Shown piece after piece: positions 11,588 to 62,851 of a stretch of DNA of 64,000 bases (its first letter is position 1; every line of letters begins with the position of its first letter). Origin of the DNA: Nageia nagi. Lineage: Eukaryota > Plantae > Pinophyta. The stretch covers positions 193,378,001 through 193,442,000 of the forward strand of contig JBITNC010000001.1 of the NCBI GenBank assembly GCA_050084985.1, written 5' to 3'. The position numbers and the translations under genes were made by a program. The notes beneath the pieces were generated by a model. The model was given only the letters and a program-made list of their open reading frames with translations. It was not told the origin of the DNA and did not search any database.

Positions 11588-11658
11588 CCCCACTTGGGCC
11601 ATTTAGAAAAGGGATTTTGGCATACAGAGCTTGCATGAGGAATCTATGCATATGATCT

Positions 11659-27497: not shown

Positions 27498-27499
27498 CT

Positions 27500-30295: not shown

Positions 30296-30343
<48 letters not shown>

Positions 30344-30519
30344 TTTAATCCTTTTTAATTTTTCTCAAAATACACAATCGGAATTAATATCATATCTTCC
30401 ACATACGGACTCGGATTCACGATCCGAAAGAAGCGTTGGAAAGCTGAAGACAAGGCGATCACAATGAACACACTGAAATGGAGATTACTGAATGTCGAAG
30501 GGATCCAAATTTTGGATCA
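29473..30519. mobile_element. Solo LTR (1047 bp) of an unrelated family
   Basis: TGATCCA...TGGATCA inverted termini and a perfect TCCAT TSD. Contains a GC-rich patch and a (TA)n tract. Confidence 0.88.
30298..30334. repeat. (TA)n microsatellite followed by poly-T
   Basis: Direct reading of the sequence. Confidence 0.95.
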
Positions 30520-36156: not shown

Positions 36157-36169
36157 GAAGGAAAGATAC

Positions 36170-36990
36170 CATGGTTGCACCTCAACAAAAAGATACATTT
36201 TTAACTTTCTGAAATCATGCGATGACCCATCTTTTAGAAATGGTGCGACCACTTCCAGACTTAGAAATTTTTACCTTGGTTGCACCAAAAAGAAAAGATA
36301 CATTTCTAACTTTGCAAAATGATGTGACCAACTATCTTTAGAAATTGTGCAACCACCACCAGACTTGGAATTTTTTTCCTTGGTTGCACCAAAAAGAAAA
36401 GATACATTTCTAACTTTCCAAAGCGGTGCGACCACCTATCTTTTTGAAATAGTGCTACCACCTCTAGACTTTGAAATTTTTACCTTAGTCGCACCAAAAA
36501 GAAAAGATACATTTCTAACTTTTCAAAACGATGCGACCACCTATCTTTTTGAAATGGTGCGACCACCTCCAATCTTGGAAATTTTTACCTTGGTTGCACC
36601 AAAAAGAAAAGATACATTTCTAACTTTTCAAAACGGTGCAACCACCTATCTTTTTGAAATGGTGTGACCACCTCTAGACTTGGAAATTTTTACTCTGGTC
36701 GCACCAAAAAGAAAAGATACATTTCTAACTTTTCAAAATGGTACGACCACCTATCTTTTTGAAATGGTGTGGCCACCTCCAGACTTAGAAATTTTTACCC
36801 TTGTCGCACCAAAAAGAAAAGATACATTTTTATCTATTTGAAATGGTGCGACCACCTATCTTTTTGAAATGGTGCGACCACCTATCTTTTTGAAATGGTT
36901 CGACTACCTATCTTTTTAAAATGGTGTGAGCACCTATCTTTTTGAAATGGTGTGATCACCTATATTTGAAATGGTGCAACCACCTCCAAA
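36170..36990. repeat. Tandem array of ~7 x 105-bp units followed by ~27-bp subunits
   Basis: The GCACC(A)AAAAGAAAAGATACATTT anchor occurs at 36177, 36282, 36386, 36491, 36596, 36701 and 36806. GAAATGGTGCGACCACCTATCTTTTT then repeats. Confidence 0.95.
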
Positions 36991-37399
36991 CATGAGATTT
37001 TTCAAGTGAAAATGACCCTGACTATATTTTGTTGCTTGTTTTTTTAGAAGTATCATCTTTTCTTGCCCTTTTCATCTGGTTGCATTTGTTGCAAATTTTT
37101 ACCTTGGTTGCACCAAAAAGAAAAGATATGTTTCTAACTTTTCAAAACAGTGTGGACACATCCAGACTTAGAATTTTTTTGGTGTGGAAAGACAATGTTC
37201 CAGAAAACGTTGCATGAAGCACCTAGATGAGGTGATGGTCATGATTTTGAAACTGAGCTAAAACAATTTAAGTATGCAGAATATCCACTCTGCCATAGTC
37301 AAACTTTGGATCTTAGGCACCCTCTCTAAAACATGTGCAGATACATTTGGACCTTCTTAAGGATTGAAAATTTCCAACTTTGCTCCCAATGGTCTTCTT

Positions 37400-37459
37400 T
37401 GGCTGAAAGTGGGCCCTCAAAATTGTGAAAATTTTTGGGTGTGTTCTGTGGGCACAATA
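37400..37459 (-). mobile_element. 5' terminus related to the giant-LTR family A
   Basis: The minus strand reads TATTGTGCCCACAGAACACACCCAAAAATTTTCACAATTTTGAGGGCCC, compared with TATTGTGCCTACACAACACCCCCCCAAAATTTTTCACATTTTGAGGATCC in copy 3. Confidence 0.75.
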
Positions 37460-40477: not shown

Positions 40478-41689
40478 TGTGATGATCCAAAATGCAATTT
40501 GCATACAAAATAGGCAAATTCAACCTCAATCACCTTGATGTCAGGCCTAGGGCATCCACAACAAGCATTCAAACCCTCAAGATGGCAACGTTAGGGTTAG
40601 GGCATCAATATTCCACATGCACAACATTAATATACCCACTTTTGGCTAGAACATGCAATAGTCAATCAACAATACACCACAATGCCAACATCTGATAAAG
40701 ACAAGCATATACAACATTGATGATCCAACACATGCACAAGATGACTAAACATAACAATAGTATGAGATCCAGTTACCCTTGGTAGTATACAAATGATATG
40801 GAATGATGCAATACAATACCAAGCCTAGGAGGGCTGATGTTGGCCTCTTAGGAGCCAATTAGGGCACAACACAAATATCCTCTAATTGGAACAATATTGG
40901 CACCATGGGACAATATGCTCCCTCAGAACTCAAATACTCTCCATCGAAGGAGCCCTCCTTTGATCTTGAATAACCTACTGAATGGTAGAAGCAATACCTC
41001 GGAATAATACCAGGTGGGCAAGGGTGTTGCGCCAATGCCGTAGATAGACAGGATCCCTCAATGTGAATACCCTCTAGACACTGTGCCTAGGAAGGTTGCT
41101 TAGCATTGCTAAGAGTTGTTTTCCTCTATACGATATGAAAGTATAATGATAAAAGTATATCTAGTAATGAGGCTCCAATGTCTATTTATACATTTGCTCT
41201 ATTCGGATCTCACCTAGGAGTCATCACCTGGCTCCTCTAATCCAACGTTGGCCTCTTGGGGGCTCGGAATGCCCAATGTCGGTGTCTAAAGGTAAGACAT
41301 GCCAATGTGTGTGCCCTAGGTATGCCACGCATGCCCACGTGGTCAAGGAGTCAAGCGTTGGGATCCTGGTGTCAAATTGGGCCAACGTGGGGGTGTGGGG
41401 GCCTCTCCAAGGCTGGCACAAGTAAATAATGATTCGTCCCTCATCTAAGTGTAGTAATAGATCTTGGGATTCCCACAATCATTATCGGGATCTCCAATTA
41501 TATTAATAACTCCTAATCTAAGCTTAGGAGGAAGACGTCCCACTTGGGGCTCACAGTGGGGTCCATTGACCCATTGAGTCTCCTATCCTAAGTTATAAAC
41601 ATGAAAGTATAATACATAAATAAAGTATATTACAAAATGAACCGTTCGGACCCCACAATTAATTACAATTAAACAAGGGGGACATCACA
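40478..41689 (-). mobile_element. 3' LTR (1212 bp), TGTGA/ATCACA family
   Basis: The plus strand reads TGTGATGATCC...GGGGGACATCACA. The minus-strand PPT TTTGAGAGGGGAGGCTT lies at 41690-41706. Confidence 0.88.
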
Positions 41690-43300
41690 AAGCCTCCCCT
41701 CTCAAATTGCTTGCCCTCAAGCAATGGTGGAAGACTGTAGCATATTGTCTTCCAAGAATCCTTTAGTGCTGGCAGCTGTGGCTCATGATGATGGAATGCA
41801 ACTTCAATATTCTCCATTCAGGATAACCATATAGGATATATTGTTGACGTGCCACATCCATGCATTAATGTAATTTGCAAACACTCTGGTTTGTTGTATT
41901 TGTCACTCCTCATCAATTGCTCTAAGGTTGTCTTCCATAAGCATGTGAGTGTATGTATATCAGAACGAAGGTGTACCCACAAGATCCTTAAGGAAATCAT
42001 GGGTAAGTATTAACAGGTAGAGCCTTTGCTTCATGTGTGAGGCCAAAATGCCTTAGAACTCAATGTGGAATCCCATACTCTCTCCCCGACCAGTGTGAAG
42101 CAAGAAACCGTCTCATCCTCTAACGTGAGATACCCATATGCCATCTGGGTCATCATCATGAAGGTAGACTTCTCTAGGTCCATTGTGTCACCACCTAGCT
42201 CAATAATGCTCTATGAGAGAAACGCAACCTCCCTCATGCTCAACGTTGGGTAGCCATCTCTACTACCCTTCAATGTGGAATGTTTGGCCTCCCTAAGACT
42301 CAACGTGAGATATCCTAACTCTCAACAATTGGACGTGGCATGCCTAGCTCTCCGGGTGCCTAATGTGGGATGTCCAATCTCCCTGAGGCTCAACATCAGG
42401 TGGTAATCCTCCCAAATGCCCAACATGGGGTGTCTAGTCTCACCTAAGCTCCACGTCTGATGATAGACTCCCCTAATGTCCCACGTGGGGGTGAGGCTCC
42501 CTTCTAAGGCCTAACGTGGGATTTTTGATTCCCTTAGGACTCAACGTGGCCCCTCTTGGCTCCCTAGGCTATAACATGGGGCATAAAAGCTCCCTAATGC
42601 CCTCCATCTCCTACTAAAACTCATCTTCTCCCAACTTGGCCCCATCCTCTGTTTCCTCCTTTTGTCACCACTCAATCACTTTTGGCCTCTTATTGTCTAC
42701 CTGTGGACAATCATTTCTAATCCCTTGCAAGGTGTGAGTCTTTCCATCGATTTCGAAACTCATTGTGAGTTTTTGATAGTTGGTGTGGATATCACCCAAG
42801 TCAAACAGCCACTATAATCCTAAGATGATGTGAGGATGTCCCTTCAAAGGATAGATGTAGAAGTCCTCCCTCACTGTACAAATCTTCAATCTAACACCAA
42901 ACCTCTCAATGATGTGGTCTACCAACGTGAGCTTCTTGTTGGTGTTGGAAACCCTAAATCCTTCAAATCCCTTGGTCTTTAGGTTCTTCCTCTCTGCAAA
43001 GCCTGCATCGATGAAGTTGTGGGATGCTCCTAGATCAATCAATACCATCACATCTTGTCCTTTGGCCTACCCTACCAACTTTAGGGTAAGGTACTTGTTC
43101 ACCCCATGTAGTGAAGCTATCATACTACCCAACGTTCCTTTTGCCTGAGGTTCTCCTTGCTCTAGGGTGTCAACTCCAATCTCCAAATCTGAGTCATTTG
43201 ACTCATCTTCTGAAAACACCTCTATGTAGTGCACTTGTCCTTTCCCTTGACAATGGTGCCCTGGCTCTCAAGTCTTCTTGCTGTAGAAGCACTTGCCTTC
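41690..43300 (-). mobile_element. Internal region of a non-autonomous Gypsy element: gag zinc knuckle, aspartic protease, ~30-bp repeats and PPT
   Basis: EGKCFYSKKT*EPGHHCQGKGQVH (decayed CCHC-type knuckle) near 43230-43300 and VLIDLGASHNFID...IILGL*WL at 42812-43051. No RT or integrase before the PPT. Confidence 0.85.
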
Positions 43301-46300
43301 TATTGTGCCTACACAACACCCCCCCAAAATTTTTCACATTTTGAGGATCCTCAGGAAAGCAAAAGAGGAATTGCAGGAAAATTTGTCCAAGAAGATGCAC
43401 ATCTTTTGGTCTAGTCTTAGGAACGTGTTTAAACTGCATATTCATGGTAGTTGAAGTTGAAATCTTGCATTTTTCAGTATGTCGCATGTTTTTCCATGAG
43501 TGCTTTTGCACCTCTCTCAAGCCATGCGACCAGTCAGCTTTCCTCATGTTTGTCACTTGCATCATCATGTTCGAAAGCATCTTGAGGGCCTCCATGTTGT
43601 AGGAACCCTATTTGCATCTCATATGACGTTTTTTATGTCAAAAAAGCAAAGGAAACACCCATTTTCAGCTTGTCGCATGTTTTTGAGGGAGTGCTTTTGC
43701 ACCCTCTAGGAAAGGCGCGACTAGGCGGAACATCATCTCACACTTAGCATTTTTTCAGTGCATTTTGTTGTCGCATGCATTTCATAGAGTCCTTTTTGCA
43801 CCCCTTTAAAAGGGTGCGACCAAGGTGGCAAATCATACTTAGCATTTTTTTCTCACTGTCGCATGCTTTGAGATGAGTCCTTTTAGCACTCACCAAAAAC
43901 CATACGACCAAAGAGATTCTATACTTAGTTAAATTTTGGAGTCTCAAAGGCTATCGCGTGCATTTCATGGAGTTTTTTTAGCACTCACCAAAAACCATGC
44001 GACCAATGTGAGGGACACTTAGTCAAATTTTGGAGCCTCAAAGGCTGTTGCAAGGATCTAGATGAGTTCTTTTGCACTCATCCAAAACCATGCGACTAGA
44101 GGGAAGAGAGGAAAATTGACTAAGTATTGAGCCTCGTTGACAAGTGGGAGCCCATGCATTGGACCTCTTTCTACGCCTATCCCATGGTGACATGTGTCCC
44201 ACTTGGAGGGCTATAAAAGGGAAGTCAGCCCCCTTCATTTCAGTTTGCAAATTTGACAAGGAGCAAAGCATGGGAGAATAGGAGAAAAAACACCCCTTTC
44301 TGGGCATGCGACCAAAGACTACCATTTTTTTTTGAAGTTTTTCAGGTCCTAGGCCTTGGGAAGCATGCCAGGACTCAAGCGCAAAGATTTAAGCATGTGC
44401 TTTAGGCACCCATCCAAAAGGGTGTGACTAGGGGCTAAGGCTTCAAAATCAGTGTGAAATTTGGCCAAGTCACCCCCCTTTCCCAGCGCATCATTTTCAC
44501 CCCGTCCTTTTGCACACTCCAAGAAACATGCGACCTTGTTGTGGGCCTTCTATTTGACCCTTAGATGGATCAACAAGGAAGTGACACCTGACAACTACAC
44601 AAACTTATAAATATCACCCCCTTTTTTGAGTATTTCAAACATCATTCTAGAATCACCCCTCTTCTTACTCGCATCATTTCTCTTGCTTGCTTGGGCACTC
44701 ATTTCAAAACATGCGACCAAGGAAACAAGACCATTGAGAAACATTGCATATTCATTTTTGAACCCAGTCGCACCATTTCTCTTGCATGCCTAGGCACTCA
44801 CTCTGAAATGTGCGACCAAGGAAGAAAGGAGGATTTAGGGACATTGCACATTCAGTTAGCCTTTTTGGGCCAAGGCATTTCATATCAACCCCTGAACCCA
44901 ATCGCATACTTTCAAGGCAGTACTTGAGGCACTCTTTCAAAACCATGCGACTAGATTTGGAATGAATAATTGTGTTCGAAAATTGACTAAGTGACCCTAG
45001 GCCCAGTTGCATACTTTTCAAGCTATGCTTTTGCACTCTAGAACTGTGTGCCTAGATTGGTTAGACATCTGGAGTTGAGAAGAGCTTAAGTAGAATTCTC
45101 CATGGCTTCAAACATCAAAGCTCCTTCGTTGAAATCTAGAAAAATTCAAAGCTAGTTGTTCGAAAGGCATGTAACCAAAAGCTAGATGAATAGGCTTTTG
45201 AAGGAAATCCTGATAGACTTTCATTAGAACGAAAAAATAGAGTTCCTTGAAGCCAAATTCAAGGGGAAACACATTTTCGTTGGTGATATAGATTGGGGAA
45301 ACTTGGACCCTATGCTGACCCTAGCCTCCACGTCCTCCATTAGCAAAGAGGACTTTTCTGAGGAGCTCATCCACACATGCGGATTGTTCAATGCTGCCAT
45401 GATGCCATTTGCAGTACCTTTCCCAAACCTATGCAATGAAGTGGCCAGGAAATGTGATTATGGCATAAGGGTTCTGCAGGATACAAAAGGCAACGTGATC
45501 ATGGACTTTTCCTTTGCCGGAATTGAAGCAGGCTTTGGTTGGAAGAGGTATGGGGACGATTATACACTGACCCATTCCGAAGAATTTCATGATTCCATGG
45601 CCCGATCTGGAGACTATATTCGACCTTGGTTACTTGAAGAATTTCAAAACCTTCAAGGTCAGAGGCTGATCAGTGCACGGAGAGATGAATTCCTGCCAGT
45701 TGTGGCAAAATTGATCACCCTTTTGTCTAGAGTGACGGGTCAGGAAAATGATGTTAAGCATCGAAGAGAGTTCACAGGTTTTATTATTGTTATCAGTTCG
45801 GGAAGACCTATTCGATGGGTTGGGGTAATCAGTGATGCCCTGCGCTATCAGTTGTCCTTTTTCGGATCCTTAAAGAGATTCTATGTGAACTCTTATTTGG
45901 TGTACCTAATGCTACATGGCAAAGTTAGATCCAAGGAGCTGGCTGATGAAAGATACTTGGGGTAGAAATACACCCGTGTGTGGAGAGCATACCAGAAATG
46001 GTGGTGCTAGAACAAGTTCCAATACGTCTAGGAGAGGACCGATTTATGGGAATATGATATCTACAAGGATATCAAAGGAGAATCTGTAGTGAAGAGGATT
46101 TCTGATGCAGCTACTCAGGCCATCAACGTACATGCAGACTTCTTTATGTAGGATGCCGATTTTACATATATCAGAGTCTTTGGTTCAGAAGAACAACCCC
46201 TGCTCTTGCCCAGATTCGCCAGTGACAGGTTGATTCTCATGGAGTATGCCAGGCAGCTCTTGTTCCTGAAGGAGAGGGTTTGGAAGAAGAAGAATGCCAC

Positions 46301-49300
46301 AATAAATTTGCCTATTACTATATTTGGATATGTGTGCCAAACATGGGTGGAGGCAACGCATATGCAAGAGGAGTTACAACAGTACAACTTCTTTAGAGAG
46401 GCTGCTGCTAAGAATTATTATCCTAAGGGGATAATTGCATGTTTTTATGATACAACTTTTCATAGGTCCATCGCGTTTCCACACAAGCCTTTGGGAGATG
46501 AGGAGAGGTATAGAAATGTACATGACATAGGAGAAATTGCACGCATAAAGGCTCTCTTGAGCAAGAAGAAGGCTCCCCTTCAGGGAGAAAAACCTCCTCA
46601 AAAACCTCGAACTACCAAGCCCCGACCTAAAGAGGCCCCGTTGAAGATCAAGTCTCTTGCTCACACCATGTCCTCACCAAAGAAGACACCCTTGCTTCCT
46701 GTAGGAAAAAGACAAGAGGTCCCAAGGGAGCTCATCTCGAGTCCCAGCAAACATAGTGTAGTAGAAATTGATCTTAGAGATGTTGGATATCATACTCTTC
46801 CCCCAGATGTGCTAGACGATGTGGTGAATATAGCATGTGGTAGTATTTCATCCACTAAGGCGATTCCTTCCAGATCCGCCCATTCTCCTGGTCTAAGGGA
46901 GAAAGTTCCCCTTTTGCAACCAAGTTCTAGCTCTAGTTCTCAGCGTTCCTCTTCTTCTGATGAAGAGAACTGAAGATCTTGACCGTACGGTGGAGGATTC
47001 TACAGAAGAATCGGAGAGTCGTAGCAAGGAAGAAGAAGATGATGTTGATGATGGCAATGCTACCAATATGCCTGAGCAAAAGGACATAGCTATAGGTGCT
47101 TCAGCACCTGATGAAACTGAGATTGAAACCATCTCGGATGATGAGATAGTGGATGTTGGTACCTATGATGATGACATCCAGATAATTGAAAAGAAATGCG
47201 CTAGAGAAGTGGTTGCATCCAAGTCCTCTCCTGTCGAACATAGGAAGAAGTCCCCTTCTTTGCATAAGTCCTCTACCAAGAGGAGTCATGAGAGATCTCC
47301 CCAGCTCCGGAACAAAGGCTTATCTATAGGCGGTAATGGAGGAGATGAAAAAGACGAAGGAGAGACTGAGGAACAGAAGAAGAAGAGATGGCAGGAGGAA
47401 CATCAAGGCAAGGAAATGGTTGTAGTGTAGACCACTCTAGCGAAAGAGGTCAAGAAAATTGACAAAGGAAGATTGCTGGTTCAAAGGTTTCTCCCTTAGC
47501 CAACGATCGAACATCCAGATCTTGACTTGGATGCCTGCCTTAGAGCCCTTAGCATGAGTATGGCTCATGATGAAGATATAGACTAGGACCTGCATTCTGA
47601 TAATGAGGAAGAAATTTTAGATGGGGAAAAGATTCAGACGGTGGACACTTTAGTTTCCACCTCTCAAAAGGAGATCTCCATCAGCCATTGCTACTCCAAG
47701 GAGAAGCACCCCCAAAGAGCAGAGGATTGTATCGTTAAGACATTCAAGATGCCAGTTAAGCTAGGGTTAACAACCAAAAAACATAGTCACCCAAAATGTT
47801 GCAGTCATAGAGCAAGAAGGCTACGAAGCCAAAAGGGAAGTGAAGAAGTTGAAGAAGGAAGATCATAAAAGAGTTCCAGAAAATTAGTACCACTCCTTTA
47901 CACTTAGAGAAGCAGACTTCCTTCCATGAGGGATGGGAATTGATGAAGGAGCAGCTTAAGAATGAAGTGATGGAGGCCTTCGAAAGATTGTCTTCGTAGG
48001 TTTACAAACTCCTTGCCGAGGGTGTTGAGAACAAGGATCTCAAAACGCAGATTTCAACACACCCTAGTACGTTGGATAGTTACCTTCCCAACGTTTCCCA
48101 TATGTATCATATTTTCGTTGATAACCTAGAAAGTTGGTCTACAGTCATGAGTTCACCTATCACCATGATTGGTTGATCCATGCACTTGAGAAGTGCAACG
48201 CTATCTTGAAATTCAGAATCCCCTTGCAACGCTATCTTGAAAGTCAGAATCCCTTGCAAAAGGAGGTTGAGGAACAAATGAGTGAATATCTTTATCAACT
48301 CAAGTTCCAAGGGGAAGATAACAATGTCAGGAAGAAGGAAGAGGTATTGGCAGAGGCCTAGAACCTAATCCAGGAGCATCTTGAAGTTGATGATCTCAAC
48401 TTGCTGAAGGCAGGGCATCCCATTATTCACGAGAGGCGGATGGTCATCTGGAGACACCAGATGCAAGCTATGTCTAAGAAGATTGAAGGATACTTCTGGC
48501 AAGATGGTAGCACTATTGGTATGATCTCCAGGGGCGGGTGAAAGACTTTGGCATTCTTAGGGGAGACTGTTGAGTCCTATGGCCTCACCAACGATGAGTG
48601 GAACTCTATCCACACCGCCTATATCTAATTCACCTGCAGACTTCATCTGCGATATCTTTTTTCTGTGTTCCATGCATATGGTTATGTTGGTTATGTCAAA
48701 CTTTACTTTATTTTGATTTGACTGGTGTAGGGATGAGGTTTTGCTCTCGCCAGATCAAATCTGTTAGACTCATTTACGACTTTGACCGGTGCAGGGATGA
48801 CGTTTTGCTCCCGCCGGCTTAGATGTCGAACCTTTTCAGACTATTTATTGCGTATCTGATTTTCTGTTGCATAGATTAGATGTGTAGAGTAGATGCATTT
48901 TGGTGGTGGCATTTATATTTTGTCAGTTTTAAATGCCACTTACATAGTTTTGTGTGAAGATATCTGATTTTGTATCGGTATGTTGCGTGTGTGCACACCA
49001 TATCAGATTTGATGCCTTTAGGGCATCACTTCTAGCGGCCTATTTATACTCCACTCGGACCATTTAAAAGGGTATTTTGACATATGGGATTTTTGCACGA
49101 GGAATTTTGACATGAAGAGTTTATGTATATGATCTTTGTACTATTTTGCATTGGACTTTTGCACGTAATGAAAGCATTATATATTGCGATTCTTGCATTT
49201 TGAAATTGAGGCTATTGAGTTTATTTTTACAATCATTTTCAGCCTTTGCATGTCATAAGATTCACATTCCATTGCATAGAAGACTGTTGCATAAGGGGTT

Positions 49301-50020
49301 CTATGCATGTTTTGTTATTGAAAATCATCATGAGTGTGTTTGTTTAGAGGAATAAAATCATAAAGTTATACTGTGAGGAACATCGTTTGTGGGATTATGC
49401 ATATCTGAATGGTTCTTTCTATGAATTGCATATTGATTATTTTGTGAAAGAGTTTGATCCTTCTTTGAATAGTTTGCATGCAAGTGGATATATTCTGAGG
49501 CCTATAGGTTGTCTCTATATCATTCAGTTAGGTTATTGCACTTACGCCCTCACTCCATCTTTACCCTTTGCATGGAGTCTTCCATAAAGACCCTACAGCT
49601 TCCTGCTCTCGTCTGGTAGTGATTTGAGCATATTTGCTATTTGCTGCCCGGCTTGATAGTGAGTGTATCGACCTTAATGAATCTGAAGATGACCTACCAA
49701 GACACTATATCCCTGATGATGTTCTCATAAATCTTTTCCTTTCTTTGCATTCCCTTGCATTTATCCTTGTGTTTGTCTCTGCATTTGTGATCTTTTTTCA
49801 CTTTCGTTCACATTTGCAATCTTTCCTCATTAAGGAAAGGATCTCATGCGTGTATTTCCCTTGTATAAGGTTAACAACATGCATATTTGATTGCTGAGCC
49901 ATCAAGACCATATTCCATGTGAGCGTTTGGGGTAACCAGTCCTTTTAGGCAGAAACAAGTAACGCTGTTTCCTCCAAGTCTTGTGCATGTTTTGGGTGAG
50001 GAAAGAAAAACATACCAACA
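43301..50020 (+). mobile_element. Giant LTR-like element, family A copy 3 (6720 bp), possibly a 5' LTR
   Basis: Same termini (TATTGTGCCTACACAACACC...CATACCAACA). Flanks ccttc/taaga do not match. Followed by a PBS-like sequence and gag. Confidence 0.9.
45102..48625 (+). pseudogene. Decayed accessory ORF inside family A copy 3 (longest open segments)
   Basis: ATG at 45102; fragments 45303-45965 (220 aa), 46206-46973 (255 aa), 46960-47430 and 48134-48361. Confidence 0.85.
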
Positions 50021-50033
50021 TAAGAGACCATTC

Positions 50034-50050
50034 TAGCACTAGAAGGAGGG
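50034..50050 (+). promoter_or_regulatory. tRNA-Asn-type primer-binding site
   Basis: TAGCACTAGAAGGAGGG differs by two G>A changes from TGGCGCTAGAAGGAGGG, the complement of the recalled plant tRNA-Asn 3' end. It lies 13 nt after the copy 3 end. Confidence 0.7.
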
Positions 50051-50464
50051 CCTTGTCGGATCCCTTTCCTCTTCTTTTTACCCTTTTTATCCTTTCATCC
50101 TTTTATTTTGTTTTATTTCTCTTTTTTCAAGCTGGAACCATTCCCGTCAAATCCCGACTTGTTCAGTTCAAGCCTATTCGACTCCCATTTTCAGGTCTAT
50201 ACCTGTTCCAAGAGGGCCGCTAAAATTGTTGCTTTAGTTGGTCAGGGCTCATCACAGGCGAACGATACAGGCTTGGCCGATTTAGCCTCCGAGAATACAA
50301 TATTACCTTAGTCGGAAGGGTCTAATTCTACATTTTATGGACCATTTCCCCATACAGTACCGCATTTTGATACTACTTTTCAGCCTATCCCTGAGAGTTC
50401 TCTTGTTCCCGGTTCCAGTCCTTTACCTGTTGTCCAGATCCCCATAGCTCAACCTCCATTGCAG

Positions 50465-50975
50465 ATGCAATGGCGACGAGGGACACCTATCAATGTTCCA
50501 GGTACACAACATGCTACGCCGAAGAATGCTTATCAGAATATTATCAAGTTCAAGGCGGATGGCATTAGGACGGTTGAAGAACACAAACCTGTATAAGGAG
50601 GCTCTGGACTGGCTGAACTTAACTCATGAAGATGTGGCTTGCAGGCTTTTCTCACTCTCATTAGATGATCAAGCCCTCGATTGGTACATGAGCTTACCCC
50701 ATGGTTCTATAACTTCGTGGGATTAGTTGCAGACAACCTTTTTCAGTCAATTCAAGATGCCTGCAAACCCGCATGAGTTACACAATCACTTTGCTTCTAT
50801 GAAGCAACAACCTGGAGAACCTGTTCGCACATTCAATGCTAGATTTCAGAAAGCTTACTCCAGACTAGTGCCCCCAGGTAATGTTAATCAAGATATAGCT
50901 TTGTAGTTATACTTTGGGGCCCTTAACCCTTTCATCTTGGTTTTTGCCCGAAAGGAGGGAAACATCACTGCTTTA
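50465..50975 (+). pseudogene. Retrotransposon gag fragment (non-chromovirus Tat/Athila-like Gypsy)
   Basis: HEDVACRLFSLSLDDQALDWYMSLPHGSITSWD*LQTTFFSQF...MKQQPGEPVRTFNARFQKAY has the Retrotrans_gag signature. Truncated at a junction with LTR sequence. Confidence 0.85.
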
Positions 50976-52084
50976 GTAGTGGCCTATTTATACCCCATCA
51001 AGGCTATTTAGAAGGGGATTTTTTTATTTGGATGCACGTAATAGAATCTTTGCATATTGATGATTATTACATTTTGGGATGCCTGTAACAAGCTTTTGCA
51101 TATGTAAAGAATTTTGAGACTATTGCACCCTCTATAATTGAGGATTTCTACATTTTGAATGCGTGTAACAAGATTTTTACATATGTTTGGGTTGTTGCTT
51201 ACATAAGGTTTTGTATTTGTAAAAACTGAGGACTTTTGCTTATGTAAAGTTGAAGAATACAACATGTGTCATTTCTGCATATTACTGCCTATCTGTAAAG
51301 GTTTTGAATATATGTGAATTTGCATCCGAAAGATTTCAGCATTCCATTGCATAGAGGTTCGTTGCATAAGGGGTTTTATGCATATTATGTTATTGAATAT
51401 CATCATGACTGGATTTCTTTTGGGAATAAGGTTATAAAGTAAATACTGTGGAGATTGTCATTTGTGGGATCATGTACGTCTAAATAGTTTTCATTTTGAA
51501 GTTGCATATTGAATATTTGTTGAAGTCGATTAAGCTATTCATTGCATGGTTTGCATGCAACTAAATGTATTCTGGGGCGTATAGCTTGTCTCTATGTCAT
51601 TCGGTTAGGCATGTGTATTCACGCCCTCACTTCATTTACCCTTGTTCCACCGAGTCTTCCACCAAGACCCTACAGCTTCCTGCTCTCGTCTAGTAGCGAT
51701 TTGAGCACATATTGATATTTGCTACCCAGCTTGATAGTGAATACATTTCCCTTAATGAATCTGGAGATGACCTACCGAGACATTGCATCACTGGTGATAT
51801 CTTCATAAGTTCATCATTCTTTATATTCCTATGCATTTATCCTTGCATTTGTGATCTTTCTTTACTTTTGTTCACATTTGAAGTCTTTCCTCATTGTGGA
51901 AAACAAACTCCGGTGGTGTATTTCCCTTGTATACTGTTAACAACATGCATCTCTGACTATTGTGCCCTAGACCATATTCCATGTGAGCGCTTGGGGTAAC
52001 CAATCCTTTTAGGCGGAAACAAGTAACGTTATTTCATCCAAGTCTTGTGCATTGTTTGGGCGAGGAAAGAAAAACATACCAACA
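50976..52084 (+). mobile_element. 3' ~1.1-kb fragment of the giant LTR, subfamily B
   Basis: Starts at TAGTGGCCTATTTATACCCC and ends CATACCAACA. Closer to 56220-57320 than to copies 1-3. Confidence 0.85.
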
Positions 52085-55000
52085 CACTCATCCAAATCCA
52101 TGTGCCCCAGTGTGAAGTGATGAATTGACCTTCCCAAGTGGAAATTGTGACCCTAAAATTGACTAAGTGACCCAAGGACTCAGTCACATGTTTTTTAGGT
52201 AGTGAAAAAGAATACATCCAAATTCGTGCACCCTGGGATCAAGGACCAAAATTTTTTTTTAAGTGTGAAAAGCCAGGAGTTGAGTAGTCAAGAAGACAAG
52301 TGGCAGACATGCATCATGCCATGCACGAACCCTCCATGCATCTCTAATAAAAGAGGGCAGCCATAGTCCATTTTTGCAGGACGTTCTGCAGCCTAGACCT
52401 GCACATCTAGCCAATTTTTCTGTACCCTTGAGGCTCATTCAGCTTGATACTTAGTCATTTTAGGGTATTCCCAGCCAGTTTTCAGTCCTTTTCTACAAGT
52501 TCTTGCATTGTTTTTTCATAATTCTAAGATGATTCCTAAAGTGAGGCCTCCCCATCCAAGGCCAAGAAAGTCTAGGGGCAGCGTTTTGAAAGGCATGTCA
52601 ACAGAGACTAGAGGGAAAGGCTCTTGAGGGAGAGTTGAATAGATATTTAGGAAAGAGAGAAACCAGAGCTCCCTGAATCCAGATTCAAGGGGAGATACAT
52701 CTTCGTTGGAGCCACAAACTGGGGAAATGTTGACCCCATCCAGACTATAGCCTCCACTACCTCCATCAGCAAAGAGGATTTATCAAATGAACTCATCCAC
52801 TCTTGTGTATTGTTCAACGCTATCGTGATGCTTTTTGTAGTTCCATTTCCTGACTTGTGCTACGAGGTAGCCAAGCGATGCAAATTTGAGAAGAGAGTTC
52901 TCTTGGACATCGAAGGAAATGTAATTATGGACTTCTCTCTGGAAGGGATTGAAGCAGCTTTTGTTTGGAAAAGATATGGAGATGACTACACACTAGCCAA
53001 TTCAGAGGAGTTCTGTGATTCTACTTATCGGCTTGGAGATTATATCAGAAGATGGTTGTATGAAGATTACCAAGGAATCCAAGTCCAGAGATTGATTAGC
53101 ACTCGTAGGGAGGAATTCTTGCCTACAGTGGCTAAGTTGATCACTTTGTTTTCCAAGGGCACAGGTAAGGAGAATGACTCCAAGTATAGGAAGGAGTTCA
53201 CCGGGTTTATTGTAGTAATTAGCTCAGGGACAGCTATCAGATGGAGCAAGGTAATCAGTGATGCCTTGTGCCACCAGCAGACTTACTTTGGCTCTTCTAG
53301 AAGATTTTACATGAACTCCTATCTTGTGTACCTATTGTTGCATGGCAAACTTAGATCGTGAGAACTTGCGGATGAAAGGAATTTGGGTTAGAAAGGCATT
53401 CCAATGTGGCGGATTTACCCAAAGCGATGGTACCACAATAAGTTTCATCATTTGTATGAGAGGACCAATCAGTGGGAGTATTCTATCTACAAAGACATCA
53501 AAGGAGAATCGGTGGTAAAAAGAATTTCTAATGCTGCTATTTAGGCCATCAACGTACACGCAGATTTCTATTTGCGATATGCTAATCATACTTATATCAA
53601 AGTCTACAGCTCCGAAGAGCAACCCCTACTTCTGCCCAGATATGCTAGTAACAAACTCATTCTCATGGAATTTGCTAGACAATTATTGTTTTTGAAGGAA
53701 CAAGTATGGAGAAAGAAGGATGCAACCATTTAACTTTCCCATCTCAATTGCAAGTTATGTTTGCCAAACGTGGGTTGTGGCCAACAGTATGAAGAAGGAG
53801 CTACAACAATACATCTTCTTCAAGATGATAGCTAGGAATTATGATCCCAGAGGTGTTATTGCTCATTTCTACAACATCGCATTCTAGAAATCTGTCGCTT
53901 ATTAACATAAATCTTTAGGGAATGTGAAGTACTGAAATGTGCAAGATGAGGAGGGGATAGCAAGGATATATGCTTTCTTGAGGAGAAATAAGGCTCCCCT
54001 TTAGGTAGAAAAGACACCTCAAAGACCTAGAACTGTGAAGGCAAGATCCAAAGAGGTCCCATTAAGGATCAAAACATCTCCTCCTTTTGCAAGTGTTATG
54101 CCTCCACAAAGCAAGACATCCTTGCTTCCCATCGAGAAAAGACAAGGAGCTTCCAGGGAGCACACCTCAAGACTTAGCCAATGCAGTGTGGTGATGGCTG
54201 ACCTAAGAGATGCTGGCTATCACACTGACCCCTTAAGCATCTTGGAGGAAGCATGTGCCAATGATTCACCCACTGAAGAAATCCCTTCTAGATCCACTCG
54301 TCTTCCTGGATGTGGAGAGAAAGTTCCTCCTTTGCAACCAAGTTCCAGTTCTTCCAAACATTCCACTTCTTCTTTTGATGAAGAAAATGATGAAGAACCC
54401 TAACATACAGTAGAAGGCTCCAAGGAAGAGATAGAGAGTCAAAGAAATGATGAGGAGAGCCGCTGTGAAGAGGAAGAAGGAGAAGAAGATGATGATGCAG
54501 TTGATGAACAATACCTCGAACAAGGCAACGTAGCTGTAGGTGCTTTTGCACCTGATGAGACGGAGATTGAGACTCTCTTAGATGACAATGAGATTGTAGA
54601 CGTTGGTACCTATGATGATGAGCGTCAGAGTGGAGTGCGCCAAAGAGGTGGGTGCTTGCAAGCCCTCTCCTGAGGAACATAGAAAGTGGTCACCCTCGTC
54701 TTCCCAAAAGCCCTTTGTGAAGAGGACCAACCATGAAAGATCCCCTCAGCCATGAAAGAAAGGCATATCAATCAGTGGCAATGGTGGAGATGAAGAAGAC
54801 GAAGGTGAGATTGAAGAATAGAAGAAGAAGAGAAAGCAGGACGAACACTAGGGTAAGGAGATTGCCCTTGTCCAGATCACTCCAACCAAGGAAGTCAAGA
54901 AGGTTAGTAGAGGCTGATTGTTGGTGCAAAGACTCCTCCCTAGCCAACAACCGAACATCTGAATCTTGACTTAGATGCCTACCTTAGAGCCTTGAGCATG

Positions 55001-57320
55001 AGTATGACTCATAATGAGGAGGTAGATCAGGACTTGAGATCTGAGGATGAAAAAGAGGAGCTCTCCTATGGTGAGAAGGTTTGAAGAATTGATACATTTG
55101 TTTCCAGACTGTTAGCACCACCCCTGTCGACTTGAAGAAGCAAGCCTCGTTCCATGAAGGATGGGAGCTGATGAAAGACCAACTCAAGAAGGAGACGATG
55201 GAAACTATTGAAAAGTTGTCTTGTCAAATATATAGTCTCCTCAAGGAAGGTGTCGAAATCCAAGAACTCAAGTCCCAAATCACAGCACACGTCGAGAAGT
55301 TGGAAGGACATCTCCTGAATGTCACCCATCTATAGCAGGTTTTTGCTGACAAACCCAAAAAATCGGTCTACTGCCACGAGTTTATCATCACGACTAGTTG
55401 AAGCATGCACTTGAAAAGTGCAATGCCGTTTTAAAAGAAAGGATCCCCTTAAGAAAGGAGGTTGAGGAGCAAATGAGTAGATATGTGTACCAACTTAGAT
55501 TTCAGTGGGAGGATAACAACGTACGAAGGAAGCAGTACTAGCAAAGGCCCAAAACTTAAATCAAGAGCATCTAGATGTCGAAGACCTCAGTTTGTTGAAG
55601 GTAGGGCATCCCATCATCCATGAAAGGCAAATGGTCATCTGGAGATACCAGATGCAGGCTACATCCAAGTAGATTGGGGACTATTTTCCGCAGAAATGCA
55701 GCATTGTTGGCATGGTTTCTAGAGGAGTGCAGAAAACTGTGGTCTTCTTGGAAGAGATTATTGAGTCGTACGGTCTCACTAGCGAGGAGTGGAACTCTGT
55801 TGGTACCGGATCAGATCTGGCCTAGATCTGATCCACTCGTTGATTCTGTTTGTGATAATCTTTCTTTGTTTAATGCATATTGATGGTGGTGGTTATTGTT
55901 ATGTTAAGACTTTATTTGATTTGGCTAGTGTAGGGATGAGGTTTTGCTTCCGCTAGATCAAATCTGTCAGACTTATTAATGGTTCTGACCAGTGCAGGGA
56001 TGAGGTTTTTCTTCCGCCGGTTCAGAATCTAAACATTTATTGCATATCTGATTTTATTTTGCATAGGTTAGTGATAGATTAAATGCATTCCGATTGTGGC
56101 ATTTATATTTTATCAACTTTCAAGTGCCACTTGCATCGTTTTTTGTGATCAGATTTTGTATCGGTATGTGTGTTGCGTGTGTGCACACCATATCAGATTT
56201 GATGCCTTTAGGGCAACACTTCTGGTGGCCTACTTATACCCCATCCGGGCCATCTAGAAGGGGATTTTTGCGTATGTGAGAAATTTTGCAAAAATTGGAG
56301 GATTTTTGCATAATGTTGATTGCATGAGATTTTGCATTTGTAAGTACTGGAGGATTTTTTGCATTTGCAAAATTGAAAACTATACTATATGTGCCATTTC
56401 CGCATATTATTGTCTATCTGTGAAGATTTTGCATATACGTAAATTTGCATATGAAAGATTTCAGCATTCCACTGCACAAGGGGTTCTATGCGTGTTATGA
56501 TTGCGTATTGTTACATCTCTACTATACTTTGAATATCATGTTGAGGATACTGCAGTCAAGTAAGTAATGTTCTTGTTCATGTCATTGAATATCATTATGA
56601 ATTGATTTCTTTCTAGAATAGTGTTATAAAGTAAATACTGTGGAGATTATCATTTGTGGGATCATGCATATTACCCTAGTGGTTTGAGTAGTTTTTCCTC
56701 TTAAAGTGTATTCTTTTGAAAGCCATGAGTTTCAAGAGAAGATTATTGAATATTTGTTGAAGTGGTTTAAGTTGTTCATTGCATGGTTTGCATGTAAGTG
56801 AATGTATTTTGGGGCGTATAGCTTGTCTCTATGTCATTTGGTTAGACTTGTGTATTCACACCATCATTTTCTTTTACCTTCACTCCATTGAGTCTTCCAC
56901 CAAGACCCTACAGCTTCCTACTCTCGTTTGTTAGTAACTTGAGCACATATTGCTATTTGTTGCTCGACTTGATAGTGAATACATTTTTTCTTAATGAATT
57001 CGGAGATGACTTGCCGAGACACTGCATCAGTGGTGATGTCTTCATAAGTTCATTATTCATATTCCTATGCATTTATCTCTGCATGTGTGATCATTCTTTG
57101 CTTTCGTTCACATTTGCAATCTTTCCTCTTTGTGGAAAACGAACTCCGATGGTGTATTTCCCTTGTATACGGTTAACAACATGCATCTTTGACTACTATG
57201 CCCTAGACCATATTCCATGTGAGCGCTTGGGGTAACCAGTCCTTTCAGGCGGAAACAAGTAACGCTATTTCCTCCAAGTCTTGTGCATGTTTTGGGCGAG
57301 GAAAGAAAAACATACCAACA
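52085..57320 (+). mobile_element. Giant LTR-like element, subfamily B, 5' part missing
   Basis: Carries the homologous decayed ORF and the 3' terminus CATACCAACA at 57320. Confidence 0.85.
52529..55825 (+). pseudogene. Decayed accessory ORF, subfamily B
   Basis: Fragments 52810-53361, 54035-54403 and 55132-55335; ends GATCTGGCC-TAG as in family A. It has an internal deletion near 55085 relative to family A. Confidence 0.8.
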
Positions 57321-58799
57321 GAAGGAGTCTAGACCCTATGTGGGTTTACAATGATTTTGTTGGTGGAACATAGATTAATATATTCACCAAGGATGAGAAA
57401 AATGGAAGAAGTGTACAAATGGTTAGATGCTAAATGTGATATGAATCATAAAATGTGTTGTTAGGCATAGGAAAGATAATGGATGAGGTGGATCAAGGTG
57501 AAACAATATGATGATTTACAAGGTCAAACTCTCCTAGGGTTGTGAAGGGAAGAGAGTCCCAACAATTCCAAGTCTTCTTTATCCTGGAGGACCAATGAAA
57601 TGTTGCAAAAAGAAATGAAATAAAATATTTTTCCTGAAGTGTATACAAACCTTTGCTACAAAACTCGCAACGAGTTTGAGTTTGAGTTGGCTCTAATGAG
57701 TCACTCAGGCCTAGACTTGTGAGTTTTGATAACTTAGCCAATTCTTGTCTTGAGACTCATGAGTCCACACTAGTTGCAAGTCTTGCTGAAACTCACGATT
57801 CTTGACAAAAATACTTGCCACTTACAAAATGGGTTTTAACCGAGTTTTTCAAGTCTTGTTGAGTTTTTTTGCCAAGTCCTAAGTTTTCACCTAGTCTTGA
57901 GTTCTTGCTAAGTAAATACATCTTAAGTTTTTCCAATTTTTTTGCCAAGCCCTAATCCAAGCCCCCAGTTGGCCTTTGCGGACTTTGAGTTTCTCTGCTA
58001 TAATATAAATTTAAACTCTTGAAAAGTTTTGATTAGCAAAAACATGCAATAGGTGGTTGAAAGACCACATTGTACCCTTCATTGGGTAGTTATCATGGGT
58101 CGACCTTGTGATCACGGACATTGGATTTGCCATTATGCAGTCCTGTCCTTAATTTCAAATATTTAAATATCAAGGATTCAAATGTTTAAATCATAATGGA
58201 AAGAATGGGCCACAAATCAAACCTCTTCTTTGTTGCAAGTCCTTATTCAAGGCAATTTGAAAATTTGAAAAGCAAAGCAAGTGTTATATAAAGCTAAGTC
58301 ATTTGGTTTTTCGCGTATCATTATGCATAGTGTACACTTTAAAGTTTTCAGATTTTTGACTACATGATTACATGCTTGTCTACTGTTGTCCATGTTCTTT
58401 TGTTGTTACTTCAACTACTCTTTATATTTCAATGCTATTGGAAACTTGCTGGGAACATGCCAAGCACTAGAGGGGTAACAAGATCCCTTGGTGGTGGTTA
58501 AGGCTTCTACTGTTCCCCTCTTCAAAAAAAGGAACATTTGCCCTCCCATTTTGTCTTAAAGGTGTCTTGTAGGTTGCAACAACTTTGAGAAGTTACAAGG
58601 ACGAACATAATCAAGTTGTAGAACAATAGAACTAGGTTGCAGTCGGGCAAGTAATCTGCATGGGCTTGGATCCTGTTGTCATGGACTCCTAGATTTGTAA
58701 TTGTATACCTATGCTAGTGCCCAAATAAGTACCTCTTGTTGTTTTTTTCCTATATTATGCATGGTTATTGCATTTCTTACTGTATAATTACTGTTTGTA

Positions 58800-59958
58800 T
58801 GTGACGTACCCCTTGTTTAGTTAGTGGGTCTGAAAGATTCTTCTTTGTAATATACTTTATTTATGTATTTGCACATTCATAATTGTAACTTAGGATAGGA
58901 GACTTAATGGGTCAATGGACCCCATTGTGAGCCCCAAGTGGGATGGCTCCCTCCTAAGGATAGATTAGGCATTTATTATGTACTTGGAGATCCCAATAAT
59001 AATTGTGGGAATCCCAAGGTCTATAGCTACAATTAGGTGATGGATGGATCATTATTTACTCACACCAGTCTTGGACAGGCCCACACACTCCCACATTGGC
59101 CTAGTTGGACACCAGGACTCTCACGCATGACTTCTTGATCCAAGTGGGCATGCGTGGCACACTTAGACTCAACGTTGGCACTTAATGCACTTTGGCCCCC
59201 TACGTTGGCATGCCTAACCCCTACGCACCTACGTTAGGTATTTCGGGCCCCCAGGAGGCTAACGTTGGATTAGAGGAGCTAGGTGATGACTCCTAGATGA
59301 GATCCGGATAGAGCTAATGTATAAATAGACATCGGAGCCTCATTACTGGATATATATTGATTATTATTACTTCTACACAATCTAAAGGTCAACAAGTCTT
59401 AGCGGTGCTAAGCAACCTTTCCTAGGCGCAACATCTAGAGCGCATTCAACTTGAGGGATCTTGTCTGTCTATAGCACTGGTGTAGCACCTTTACCCATCC
59501 AGTGGTATTCCGAGGTATTGCTTCTACCTTTGGTGGTTATCTAGGATCTGAGGAGGGCCGCTTCGGTGGGGAGGATTCTTATTCTGAGGAGGCATACTAT
59601 CCCATGGTTCCAGATATTGTGTTGTGCCCTAGTTGGCTCTTGAGAGGCCAACGTCAGCCCTTATGGGCATGATATTTTATTCATTGAGCATTATATATAT
59701 TGCCAAGGGCATTGGATCTCATCATTTGTATTGTCTATATCATACTTGTGCATGCGTTGGATTACTATTGCTGTGTATACTTATATTGGCTAGACATTGG
59801 CATTATTGTGTAGTTAATGCTTGTATTTGATGCCCTGGCTCCAACATTGGCTTTGTAGTGTTGTTTATGCAATTTGTGGATGCCCTAGACCAAACGCTAG
59901 GGTTGGATTATTATAATGTGCTAATTTGTGCTTGAGATTGCATTTTTGGATCATCACA
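58800..59958 (+). mobile_element. Solo LTR (1159 bp), TGTGA/ATCACA family
   Basis: TGTGACGTACCCC...GGATCATCACA with TSD TTGTA/TCGTA (one mismatch). Confidence 0.9.
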
Positions 59959-60190
59959 TCGTAGCTATGCTTAGTGCTTGTCCCAATATATTTATTGTTT
60001 TCCCATACATTTATCATCACAATTATTATTGATTGTTTGAAAATGGTTATGCCTTAAATCGACTTTCTTTGTTAGGGTATTGTTTCTATCTATTATACAT
60101 AAAAAAATATTCTTCATTTTGGTGTCATTGCCTTCGAGAATTTGTAGTGTCAATTTGTGTGATTGTGTTAATTACAATCTACACATTGTG

Positions 60191-61106
60191 TGTGATGATC
60201 CAAAATTCAAATTAGGAGCAAATAAGCAAATTCCAACCAACAAACCCTGACGTCAAGCCTAGGGCATCAAACACAAGCACATAAACCCTCAAGATGGTAA
60301 CGTTAGGGTTAGGGCATCCAAACCAAGCTATCACAATGCAAATAAGCCAACGTCTAGCAAGTACATGCAATAAACAATAAACAATACTCCACAATGCCAA
60401 CGTCTGGCCAATGCACAACAGTAGTAATCCAATGCATGCACAAGAATGATGTAGACTGTACAAAATATGAGATCCAATGCCCTTGGTGATATATAGAATG
60501 TACAAGGCTCAACAAATACAATATCGGGCCCAGAAGGGCTAACGTTGGCCTCCAAGGAGCCAACTAGGGCATAACAATATATCTTCTCACCACTGGAACA
60601 ATCCTCGAACCATGGGACAATATGCTTCCTCAGAATAAGATTCCCCTCCACTAAAGGAGTCCTCGTTAAAACTTGGGTAATCACTGAAGGTAGGAGCAAT
60701 ACCTCAGAATACCACCGGGTGAGCAAACGTGTTGCACTAATGCCGTAGATAGATAGGACCCCTAAGCTTGAATGCCGTCTAGATGCTACGCCTAGGAAGG
60801 TTGCTTAACACCGCTAAGACTTGTTGTCCTTTGGACGATATGAAAGAAATAATAATTTTGTATATCCAGTAATGAGACTCCAAGGGTTAATATAGCCTTC
60901 CTTTGTTTTGAGTACACCTCAATGTCATCACCCAATCCCCTCATGGACCAACGTTCGCATCTAGGGATCAATCTAGGCTCAATGTGGGTATTTGGGCCTT
61001 CCCTATGCTCCATGTGGACCCAGGAATGCATGCGTGGGCCTACAAAGCATGTGTGGGCACGTAGGGGGGCAACGTGGGTCTTAAGGCCCAATGTGGGGGT
61101 CTAGAA
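60191..61106 (-). mobile_element. LTR of the same family in - orientation, interrupted at 61107
   Basis: TGTGATGATCC at 60191; similar to the reverse complement of the 58800-59958 LTR. Confidence 0.85.
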
Positions 61107-61730: not shown

Positions 61731-62650
61731 CTTCTTCATTTCTCATCTTACACTCCATTGGTGAGGTAAATTCCAAGAGAAGGTATAAATTTCCTCCTCA
61801 TTTGATCATTTTTTTTGGATTATTGCATTAGATACTAACATATTTTGTGAGATATTGGAGCTTATTTCTTGCAAAATACGATTAAAATGACAATGCAAGT
61901 ATTTTTTTTTTTCTATACTAACCTCTTATGTTAGTAGCATTTTTTTTACAAAAATGCTCAATACATGCTATATTTTTTTTTAAGAGGATACTATGAAATG
62001 CCAATATTTTTACTAATATTTTTTTATGTTAGTAGTATTTTTTTATTACTATTTGCTTAAAAATAGTAAATTGTGAAATTTCTCATATATATACTACCAT
62101 TTTTTATGTTAGTAGTATTTTTTTGGTGAGTCATGAACATTTACAAAAAAAAAAAAATGAGAGGAGGATAATTGTTTTTTGGTCTACTACAAATTTTATG
62201 AGGGCACAATAATATTTATATACATTTTTTTTTGTATATACAAAAACAAAGATATTTAAAAAAAATCAAATAAGTTTTTTTTTAAATTATCAATTTATAA
62301 ATAAATTAAACCATATAACAATTTATTAAATTTGGGGGGGGTCGAATAAAACGAATACAGGCTGCGCGTGAACTGTTTGACGAAATGTTGCGCAAATTGT
62401 TTGACAAAATGCGCCTCGCAAGCCAACTCCTGCTGAGCTTGGTTGGATTGAGATCTTCAAAAAAAAAAAAAAAAAGTCAATTCCCTCCTTCAGGAAACGT
62501 GCAGAACTTGATGATTCTGTTCCTGATGCAGAGGTTAGAACAACAAAGTTTGCTAAGAGAAACATTTGTGTTTATTGTTTGGCCATTGTTTAATAATAAA
62601 AACAGGGGGCAAGACAAATAATATTAAATTAAATTAAAGATTTCAAATCA

Positions 62651-62851
62651 CTTGGAAATGGCGGGCTTGCTCGCCTGTTAGCATGTTTGATGGACTCCCT
62701 TTCAAGTTTAGACTTTCCAACCTGGGGATATGGATTGCGTTATCAGTATGGATTGTTTAGACAAGTTATACTTGATGGGTTTCAGCATGAACAACTAGAT
62801 TATTGGTTGAATTTTGGTAATCCTTGGGAGATTGAGCGCATTCATATTACT
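62651..62851 (+). pseudogene. Alpha-glucan (starch/glycogen) phosphorylase fragment, 67 codons
   Basis: [67 protein letters not shown] carries conserved GT35 motifs. No splice sites at its edges; runs in frame into a PPR-like piece. Confidence 0.9.

Follow-up and report, generated by a model that had tools for sequence, protein, structure and literature searches.

A 6.7-kb repeat of Nageia nagi as the likely, unusually long LTR of a Ty3/gypsy retrotransposon

Protein genes located in U3, and present in both LTRs, are known from retroviruses (for example, MMTV sag and the overlap of HIV nef), and these retroviral ORFs comprise a few hundred codons. Compared with them, the ORF described here is longer (~1,175 codons), has a TATA-like site of its own, and is present whole in solo LTRs. 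VANC proteins bind motifs arrayed in tandem repeats, cause demethylation, and counter silencing.

Among plant LTR retrotransposons, TatII and Athila of the OTA superclade resemble the present unit in their 5-bp TSDs, large LTRs, tandem arrays, and extra ORFs, and TatII is a gymnosperm lineage in which 26% of the elements carry a sense 3' extra ORF, as described in the accessible part of the REXdb paper (PMC6317226). The same part gives LTRs that reach ~5 kb and a tRNA-Asn PBS for 15% of TatII, 12% of Athila, and 4% of Retand elements (PMC6317226). In the Athila elements of Brassicaceae the spacer between LTR and PBS is AT-rich and 3-6 bp long in the excerpt at hand (bioRxiv 10.64898/2026.03.20.713144), whereas that of the unit measures 11-13 nt. 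Ogre elements come close to the unit with LTRs of 1.9-6.5 kb (PMC6431247, in part); however, they belong to angiosperms and have a tRNA-Arg PBS in 89% of cases (PMC6317226, in part). Their extra ORFs carry the plant mobile domain and lie in the internal region, whereas the ORF of the unit is inside the LTR and has no PF10536 match. Extra ORFs are described from the internal region also in the accessible sections of two further papers (PMC7264820; PMC4408406). The literature searched, which was covered in part and with Repbase outside it, contained no case of a plant LTR retrotransposon that carries a gene within its LTR, so Repbase may list the family under a name. Likewise, the accessible portions of four papers (PMC10886601; PMC13468544; PMC11539532; PMC11358816) hold nothing on a 6.7-kb family.

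The DNA analysed here, referred to as the window, is a stretch of 64,000 nucleotides (64 kb) from Nageia nagi. A self-comparison of the window located three full copies of a 6.6-6.7-kb unit and two pieces of a subfamily B. The full copies and their more distant relatives are as follows.

43301-50020, plus strand: copy 3, subfamily A, 6,720 bp, interpreted as a 5' LTR, with TA(TG)TTGTG...CCAACA termini
5847-13213, plus strand: copy 1, solo LTR, 6,669 bp plus an insertion of ~700 bp at 11625-12322, TSD 4/5
15343-21960, minus strand: copy 2, solo LTR, 6,618 bp, with a perfect 5-bp TSD
1080-14770, minus strand: distant relative D, interrupted by copy 1
36160-37459, minus strand: fragment E, the 5' 1.3 kb of another relative, with a 105-bp array that contains the motif

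We consider it very likely that the unit is an unusually long LTR of a Ty3/gypsy retrotransposon, since it directly precedes a PBS and gag here and in other organisms; the host element is probably of the plant Tat/Athila type. Copies 1, 2, and 3 and fragment E share one start base and have TGTTGTG-type ends, and this start fits the LTR end consensus TGTTRNR as given in the available text (PMC3601003). The termini form short inverted repeats, TGTTG...CAACA in copy 1, from which copies 2 and 3 each differ by a single transition. We read copies 1 and 2 as solo LTRs with 5-bp TSDs, GTTTA/GTTTG (4/5) in the former and GAACC/GAACC in the latter. Copy 3 has no TSD, as the initial annotation had observed, and its flanks are CCTTC on the left and TAAGA on the right. 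Relative D has its parts in the same order as the unit, including a repeat array with a different motif and a related 3' end; its ORF, which begins at 5240, is homologous to that of the unit at 30-35% identity, a canonical TATA lies at 2048, and its 5' end is only approximate (~14,770).

Copy 3 terminates with CATACCAACA at 50011-50020 of the window and is followed by these features.

50021-50033, plus strand: LTR-PBS spacer TAAGAGACCATTC, 13 nt, against 11-12 nt in most other copies
50034-50050, plus strand: PBS TAGCACTAGAAGGAGGG, matching the expected tRNA complement at 15/17 positions
50448-50976, plus strand: broken gag, with PF03732 at ~50643-50912, truncated at the jump
50956-50977, plus strand: gag-to-LTR deletion junction with patchy microhomology (AGGGAAACA; TAG)
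50977-52084, plus strand: B1, the 3' 1.1 kb of a subfamily-B LTR
52085-57320, plus strand: B2, a subfamily-B LTR without its 5' ~1.5 kb; it shares the ORF of the copies

The initial annotation had placed a PBS 13 nt past the LTR end and a gag ~430 bp farther on. The PBS sequence does stand at 50034-50050, and the gag frame opens at 50448, which is 428 nt past the LTR end. The PBS is presumably of the tRNA-Asn type; a literature search gave no tRNA assignment for it. On neither strand of the 64-kb window does any other site match the expected 17-mer when as many as 3 mismatches are allowed, and an iid model gives a probability of ~2e-6 for a site of this quality in the 40 nt next to a single end. 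The gag frame was translated with X in place of two stops for the Pfam comparison, and PF03732 (Retrotrans_gag) matched it with E 2.4e-14 and 53.8 bits (cut-off 24.1) over residues 66-155 (~50643-50912). PF19259 (Ty3_capsid) stayed below its cut-off, and the dArc1 capsid gave a weak match (E 0.009). Searches of sequence collections with the gag found no relatives. A further gag-like part was seen upstream by eye, apparently in another frame, from which a frameshift near 50590 would follow. No Rfam family reached its gathering score, no stable RNA fold was found across the junction (z 1.16), and a tRNA search of 40 viral loci for a match to the PBS returned one tRNA, unrelated.

The recurrence of this junction was followed in public read contigs of six coded runs (X1, X2, X3, X4, X12, and X21), compared with the window as a stand-in for a genome-wide table of ends. 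At least six pieces, among the 58 listed (32 + 26), bridge position 50020 with 31 or more letters on each side. Two of them come from X2, two from X3, and one each from X4 and X12, and these runs stand for organisms B, C, D, and F and for three studies; a further 9 of the 58 listed pieces bridge the position with a shorter overlap. In X3, 14-15 contigs depart from the window sequence at 50025 and continue into the PBS, and one 673-nt contig (depth 8.57) joins the LTR end to a gag match at 50623 with nearly the same spacing. Other contigs enter unrelated sequence at 50020 (8 in X1, 75 in X2, 76 in X3, 16 in X4, and 73 in X12, agreement 0.36-0.44); hence the contigs of these five runs diverge at a true end. 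Across 49800-51100, divided into 30 bins, X1 covers 29 and X4 all 30, and the X21 contigs have no coverage at the junction. The spacer is 1-2 letters shorter in most contigs than in copy 3, with 11-13 nt overall; the spacer of copy 3 had been flagged as long, and the length is indeed 13 nt, but it belongs to a trait of the family. At the PBS positions mismatched in copy 3, the contigs mostly carry the expected complement, at one site in three runs and at the other in X2 and X3 and not in X12. Among the contigs listed, none enters the spacer from a different upstream sequence.

The recurrence of the junction in diverged copies of four organisms implies that the link between LTR end and PBS is a trait of the family. 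This bears out what the initial annotation had asked of other copies, as LTR end, spacer, and PBS come together again in contigs of four organisms from three studies. Its wider claim, that the unit is linked to a Gypsy interior, also gains from the recurrent end-PBS link, from the one contig that extends to gag, and from the PF03732 match. The wider collections contributed little: the LTR-end pattern had 0 matches in viral contigs and 13 in GTDB, all in bacterial genomes and taken as chance, while the spacer-PBS pattern had 1 match in metagenome contigs, in unrelated DNA of bacterial type and likewise due to chance. Matches in air, indoor, and sediment metagenomes were small shares and were excluded from the evidence. 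The summed contig depth, which is not equal to copy number, is 39,000-103,000 at the LTR end and decreases to 71-249 at the PBS. Within the window, the PBS is present at one of the six 3' ends of the unit. The depth fall and this low PBS count speak against so long an LTR and are difficult to reconcile with the low solo-LTR ratios of conifers, around one solo LTR per 4-7.5 complete elements in the accessible part of the source (PMC5751070). A purine tract was seen before 0 of 4 5' ends of the unit in the window, all of which may be solo or 5' LTRs. No pol and no LTR pair around an interior were seen, and the interior of copy 3 is deleted.

Downstream of gag, LTR similarity starts again at 50956-50977. 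The jump into an LTR 3' end reported by the initial annotation is thus real, and its position is this interval instead of 50990. Over the last ~590 nt, identity is 89.7% between copies 3 and 2, 83.7% between copy 3 and B1, and 88.6% between B1 and B2, in agreement with the earlier assignment of the downstream fragment to subfamily B. The end of B1 continues into the middle of B2. As B1 is closer to B2 than to copy 3 and runs into B2, it is not the sister LTR of copy 3. B1 was considered as the 3' LTR of copy 3 and was ruled out by these identities and by the flanks (CCTTC vs CACTC). The read contigs have a normal LTR context upstream of 50977, which makes the gag-LTR jump peculiar to this locus. 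We infer that a deletion with patchy microhomology joined the element of copy 3 to a separate subfamily-B insertion.

The internal organisation of the unit, with the positions of copy 3, is as follows.

43301-45101, plus strand: non-coding 5' part, with ~94-bp repeats and 14 TGCGAC
44211, plus strand: TATA-like CTATAAAAG, ~890 nt upstream of the ORF
45102-48628, plus strand: LTR ORF, ~1,175 codons, with stops and frameshifts in copy 3
49039-49048, plus strand: TATA-like element, 981 nt from the 3' end, in the putative U3/R neighbourhood

The ORF is common to all copies and consists of a folded N-terminal part of ~470 aa, a low-complexity middle, and a conserved C-terminal part. For three ORF segments compared between subfamilies A and B, omega amounts to 0.056, 0.117, and 0.149, against 0.84-2.2 in the other frames; among the A copies it is 0.29-0.44. 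Differences by codon position number 91/71/201 in the ORF, and the non-coding end is even, with no codon pattern. By these measures, the comparison of copies indicates that the ORF evolves under purifying selection. A search with the ORF against 1.84 billion representatives yielded 132 relatives at E<=1e-3, of which the 10 that were looked up bear uninformative names. No Pfam family reached its cut-off for the ORF pieces of the window or for the 44 of 132 relatives scanned, and this includes PMD (PF10536), DUF1985, DUF287, and Athila ORF-1. A word search with the ORF gave no match, and neither did PDB sequence searches, from which VANC21 was absent. Foldseek with the ORF model found nothing at E<=0.001 in PDB and BFVD, and there was no profile similarity to another ORF at 22693-23022 (probability 2%). 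Atlas RdRP rows for the ORF were weak and under thresholds, a later Atlas search returned none, and this candidate was dropped.

A single-sequence fold of the ORF was not usable (pLDDT 36.6); the model of residues 1-469 predicted from 113 sequences reached a pLDDT of 80.5. When this model was compared with 48,161 chains by VIA-align, only the VANC21-DNA complex 9lnk_A exceeded Z 5, with Z 6.0, rmsd 4.6, 209 aligned residues, and 6% identity, where a Z below 8 may reflect only a common arrangement; the next chain had Z 3.5. Of the known systems considered in this respect, VANC21 of VANDAL21 and the PMD proteins MAIN/MAIL1, VANC21 is the best fold match to the ORF model. VANC21 and the ORF product are alike as element-encoded accessory proteins beside arrays of short motifs; however, VANC21 comes from a Mutator-like DNA transposon and the unit is read as part of an LTR retrotransposon, and the two share 6% identity and no Pfam link. 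The ORF is predicted to encode a DNA-binding accessory protein.

The 5' part of the unit contains the motif TGCGAC, which is a post hoc choice and belongs in part to tandem repeats. In the first 1.8 kb it occurs 12 times in copy 1, 11 times in copy 2, and 14 times in copy 3, in both orientations and with varied flanks. It is absent (0) from the ORFs and 3' parts of copies 1-3 and occurs once in the 28 kb outside the units. Relative D has 0 TGCGAC and 8 AGGCGC, and the remaining 446-bp 5' part of B2 has no exact TGCGAC. The CpGs of the motif are kept between copies at 69-90%, compared with 18-36% for other CpGs of the 5' part and 38-52% for those of the ORF, a comparison open to ascertainment bias. 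Near the other end of the unit, 6/6 copies have a TATA-like element that precedes the 3' end by 937-1,101 nt, and the one at 49039-49048 is the positional homologue of the canonical CTATAAATAG in D.

Several other explanations of the unit have to be weighed against a long LTR. It is quite unlikely that the unit is mobile on its own, whether as a non-autonomous or as a DNA-type element ending in TG..CA; the copies joined to a PBS would then be a minority chimera or the ancestral form. The PBS at 1/6 of the 3' ends, the more than 100-fold fall in depth at the end, the lack of a PPT or 3' LTR in the window, and the unit's own gene and promoter-like site would suit such an element; nevertheless, no transposase-like match of the ORF was found by Pfam, PDB, or fold, the 5-bp TSDs and the ends suit an integrase, and the link to the PBS is seen again, in variant sequences, in four organisms. 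Moreover, summed contig depth is not copy number, and the long LTRs of angiosperms favour solo formation according to the excerpt used (PMC5751070). The TATA-like site 937-1,101 nt from the end could also mark a true LTR of ordinary size (1.0-1.4 kb), with the upstream 5.3 kb as a 3' internal region that holds an extra ORF; in that case the unit would represent an element cut short, or copy 3 would serve tandem elements as their common LTR. Such an arrangement has parallels in the LTRs of ~1.0-1.1 kb of those gypsy families of pines that have a second domain of RNase-H type (PMC3762812, in part) and in the sense 3' extra ORF of 26% of TatII elements (PMC6317226, in part), and the 5' end of D is only approximate. 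We regard it as very unlikely for the present element, given that copies 1, 2, and 3 and E begin at one base with TGTTGTG-type ends, that the TSDs of copies 1 and 2 flank the full unit, and that in copy 3 all 6.7 kb stand before the PBS with foreign DNA upstream; it probably describes the ancestor. Scarcely credible is an insertion of copy 3 at 10 nt from the end of an ordinary LTR, whose element would own TAAGAGACCA-PBS-gag. The spacer does contain a CA and 3 nt before the PBS, as in a normal LTR end, and Athila spacers of 3-6 bp are described in the accessible text (bioRxiv 10.64898/2026.03.20.713144). This caveat, which the initial annotation had raised, fails at this locus because the left flank of copy 3 is CCTTC in a gag-protease-like frame and not TAAGA in an LTR. 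In addition, the junction recurs in diverged copies of four organisms, and no other upstream sequence precedes the spacer among the contigs listed, so that the insertion can survive only as a very old origin of the spacer.

The role of the ORF is a separate matter from that of the LTR. The likeliest single role of the modelled protein, at rather less than an even chance, is that of a VANC/PMD-like factor which would recognise the motif array of the LTR that encodes it and act against silencing. A role of another kind, for which the prospects are close to even, would leave the LTR reading intact: the protein may be a particle or nucleic-acid chaperone or a transcription activator like those of retroviral U3 genes, and the array a hypervariable repeat region of Tat/Ogre type. 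Z 6.0 is within the range that VIA-align quotes for chance best matches, these lineages have extra ORFs of varied kinds and unknown function in the accessible sections (PMC6317226; PMC7264820), and tandem arrays are common in large non-chromoviruses (PMC6317226, in part). However, the sole chain above Z 5 out of 48,161 is a DNA-bound plant transposon accessory protein, and the motifs, which are found in either orientation and with flanks that vary, retain their CpG and differ by subfamily.

With the unit read as a long LTR, transcription would start ~1 kb from its 3' end, and ~5.7 kb, including the array and the ORF, would consequently be U3. The U3 may have been enlarged when plus-strand priming shifted upstream of a former 3' extra ORF and a repeat-rich leader. 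Minus-strand synthesis would be primed by the tRNA, and the integrase would cut the 11-13-nt spacer back to CA. LTR-LTR recombination would then produce solo LTRs such as copies 1 and 2, which keep the entire gene and promoter, and at copy 3 a microhomology-type deletion would have taken the rest of the element and fused gag to an unrelated subfamily-B LTR. More tentatively, the LTR might be a self-contained anti-silencing cassette, with a VANC-like DNA-binding protein, a promoter, and an array of target motifs within 6.7 kb. Equally tentative are the corollaries that protein and motif co-evolve between subfamilies and that each solo LTR stays a full cassette which can affect other copies in trans.

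There is nothing unusual in an LTR that precedes a PBS and gag; what is unusual is that an abundant 6.7-kb repeat carrying a selected gene of ~1,175 codons should be such an LTR. A length of 6.7 kb is at or above that of the longest plant LTRs found in print, those of Ogre at 6.5 kb in the accessible text (PMC6431247). Pipelines with a length cap, such as the 2 kb given in the available part of one study (PMC4408406), would miss the family and miscount solo LTRs. Such miscounts matter for the view that LTR elements are seldom removed from very large plant genomes. For one widespread family of extra ORFs, the ORF of the unit suggests a function that can be put to the test. Should its protein prove VANC-like, the sequence-specific anti-silencing described for Mutator-like DNA transposons would have a counterpart in retrotransposons, and solo LTRs would be donors instead of the inert scars for which they are usually taken.

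The last 590 nt of the LTR units, which are non-coding, differ by only ~17% between subfamily A, to which copies 1-3 of the ~6.7-kb unit belong, and subfamily B (49431-50020 vs 56740-57320), whereas the synonymous sites of the ORF carried inside each unit are near saturation in the same A/B comparison (pS 0.63-0.74). The low divergence of the 3' end would reflect either strong constraint or an exchange of 3' ends between the subfamilies. The two subfamily-B pieces downstream of copy 3, B1 and B2, meet at 52084/52085, where an internal repeat position of B2 directly abuts the end of B1; this junction is either a B LTR nested in another B LTR or a tandem junction. Fragment E, the 5' part of a related LTR, contains tandem arrays of 105-bp and 26-bp units (36167-36985), both of which are built on the core of the LTR-array motif, and these arrays are a satellite growing out of the LTR array.

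Copy 1 carries a ~700-bp insertion (11625-12322), apparently an oppositely oriented LTR fragment from a different family. Copy 2 splits a broken minus-strand ORF (14775-15342 and 21961-23100) that by eye looks like the extra ORF of another retrotransposon; it gave no Pfam match, and a profile comparison with the LTR ORF showed no similarity. The host site of copy 3 is a broken reading frame that, by eye, resembles the gag zinc knuckle and protease of a different gypsy element (42000-43300, minus strand); the frame had no Pfam match, and its other half was not found within the 64-kb window. The CCTTC to the left of copy 3 (43296-43300) is the reverse complement of the GAAGG to the right of B2 (57321-57325), a complementarity that is probably due to chance and less probably the product of a rearrangement.

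Other elements in the window are as follows:
26781-30766, 34938-36154, 40478-41689 and 58800-60883, both orientations: several copies of a second LTR family, unrelated to the 6.7-kb unit
23414-24900, minus strand: remains of a LINE reverse transcriptase, with a zf-RVT match at E 5e-6
62633-62836: small piece of a carbohydrate phosphorylase-like sequence, with a PF00343 match at E 8.5e-28

The phosphorylase fragment sits amid PPR-like fragments and is either a host exon or a captured gene piece. One end of the second LTR family is followed by a PBS at 27497 (minus), which we take to be of the tRNA-Met type.

The PBS that follows copy 3 (50034-50051) is, with 2 mismatches, the reverse complement of an 18-nt read that a table of PMC8747174 lists as miR3711, matched to spruce pab-miR3711; the read as tabulated ends in CCA. 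MIR3711 has been described as conifer-specific with unknown targets (PMC6683148), and its precursor was not found in birch (PMC10220576). What is catalogued as the 'miRNA' miR3711 may represent either a fragment from the 3' end of a tRNA or an RNA derived from the PBS.
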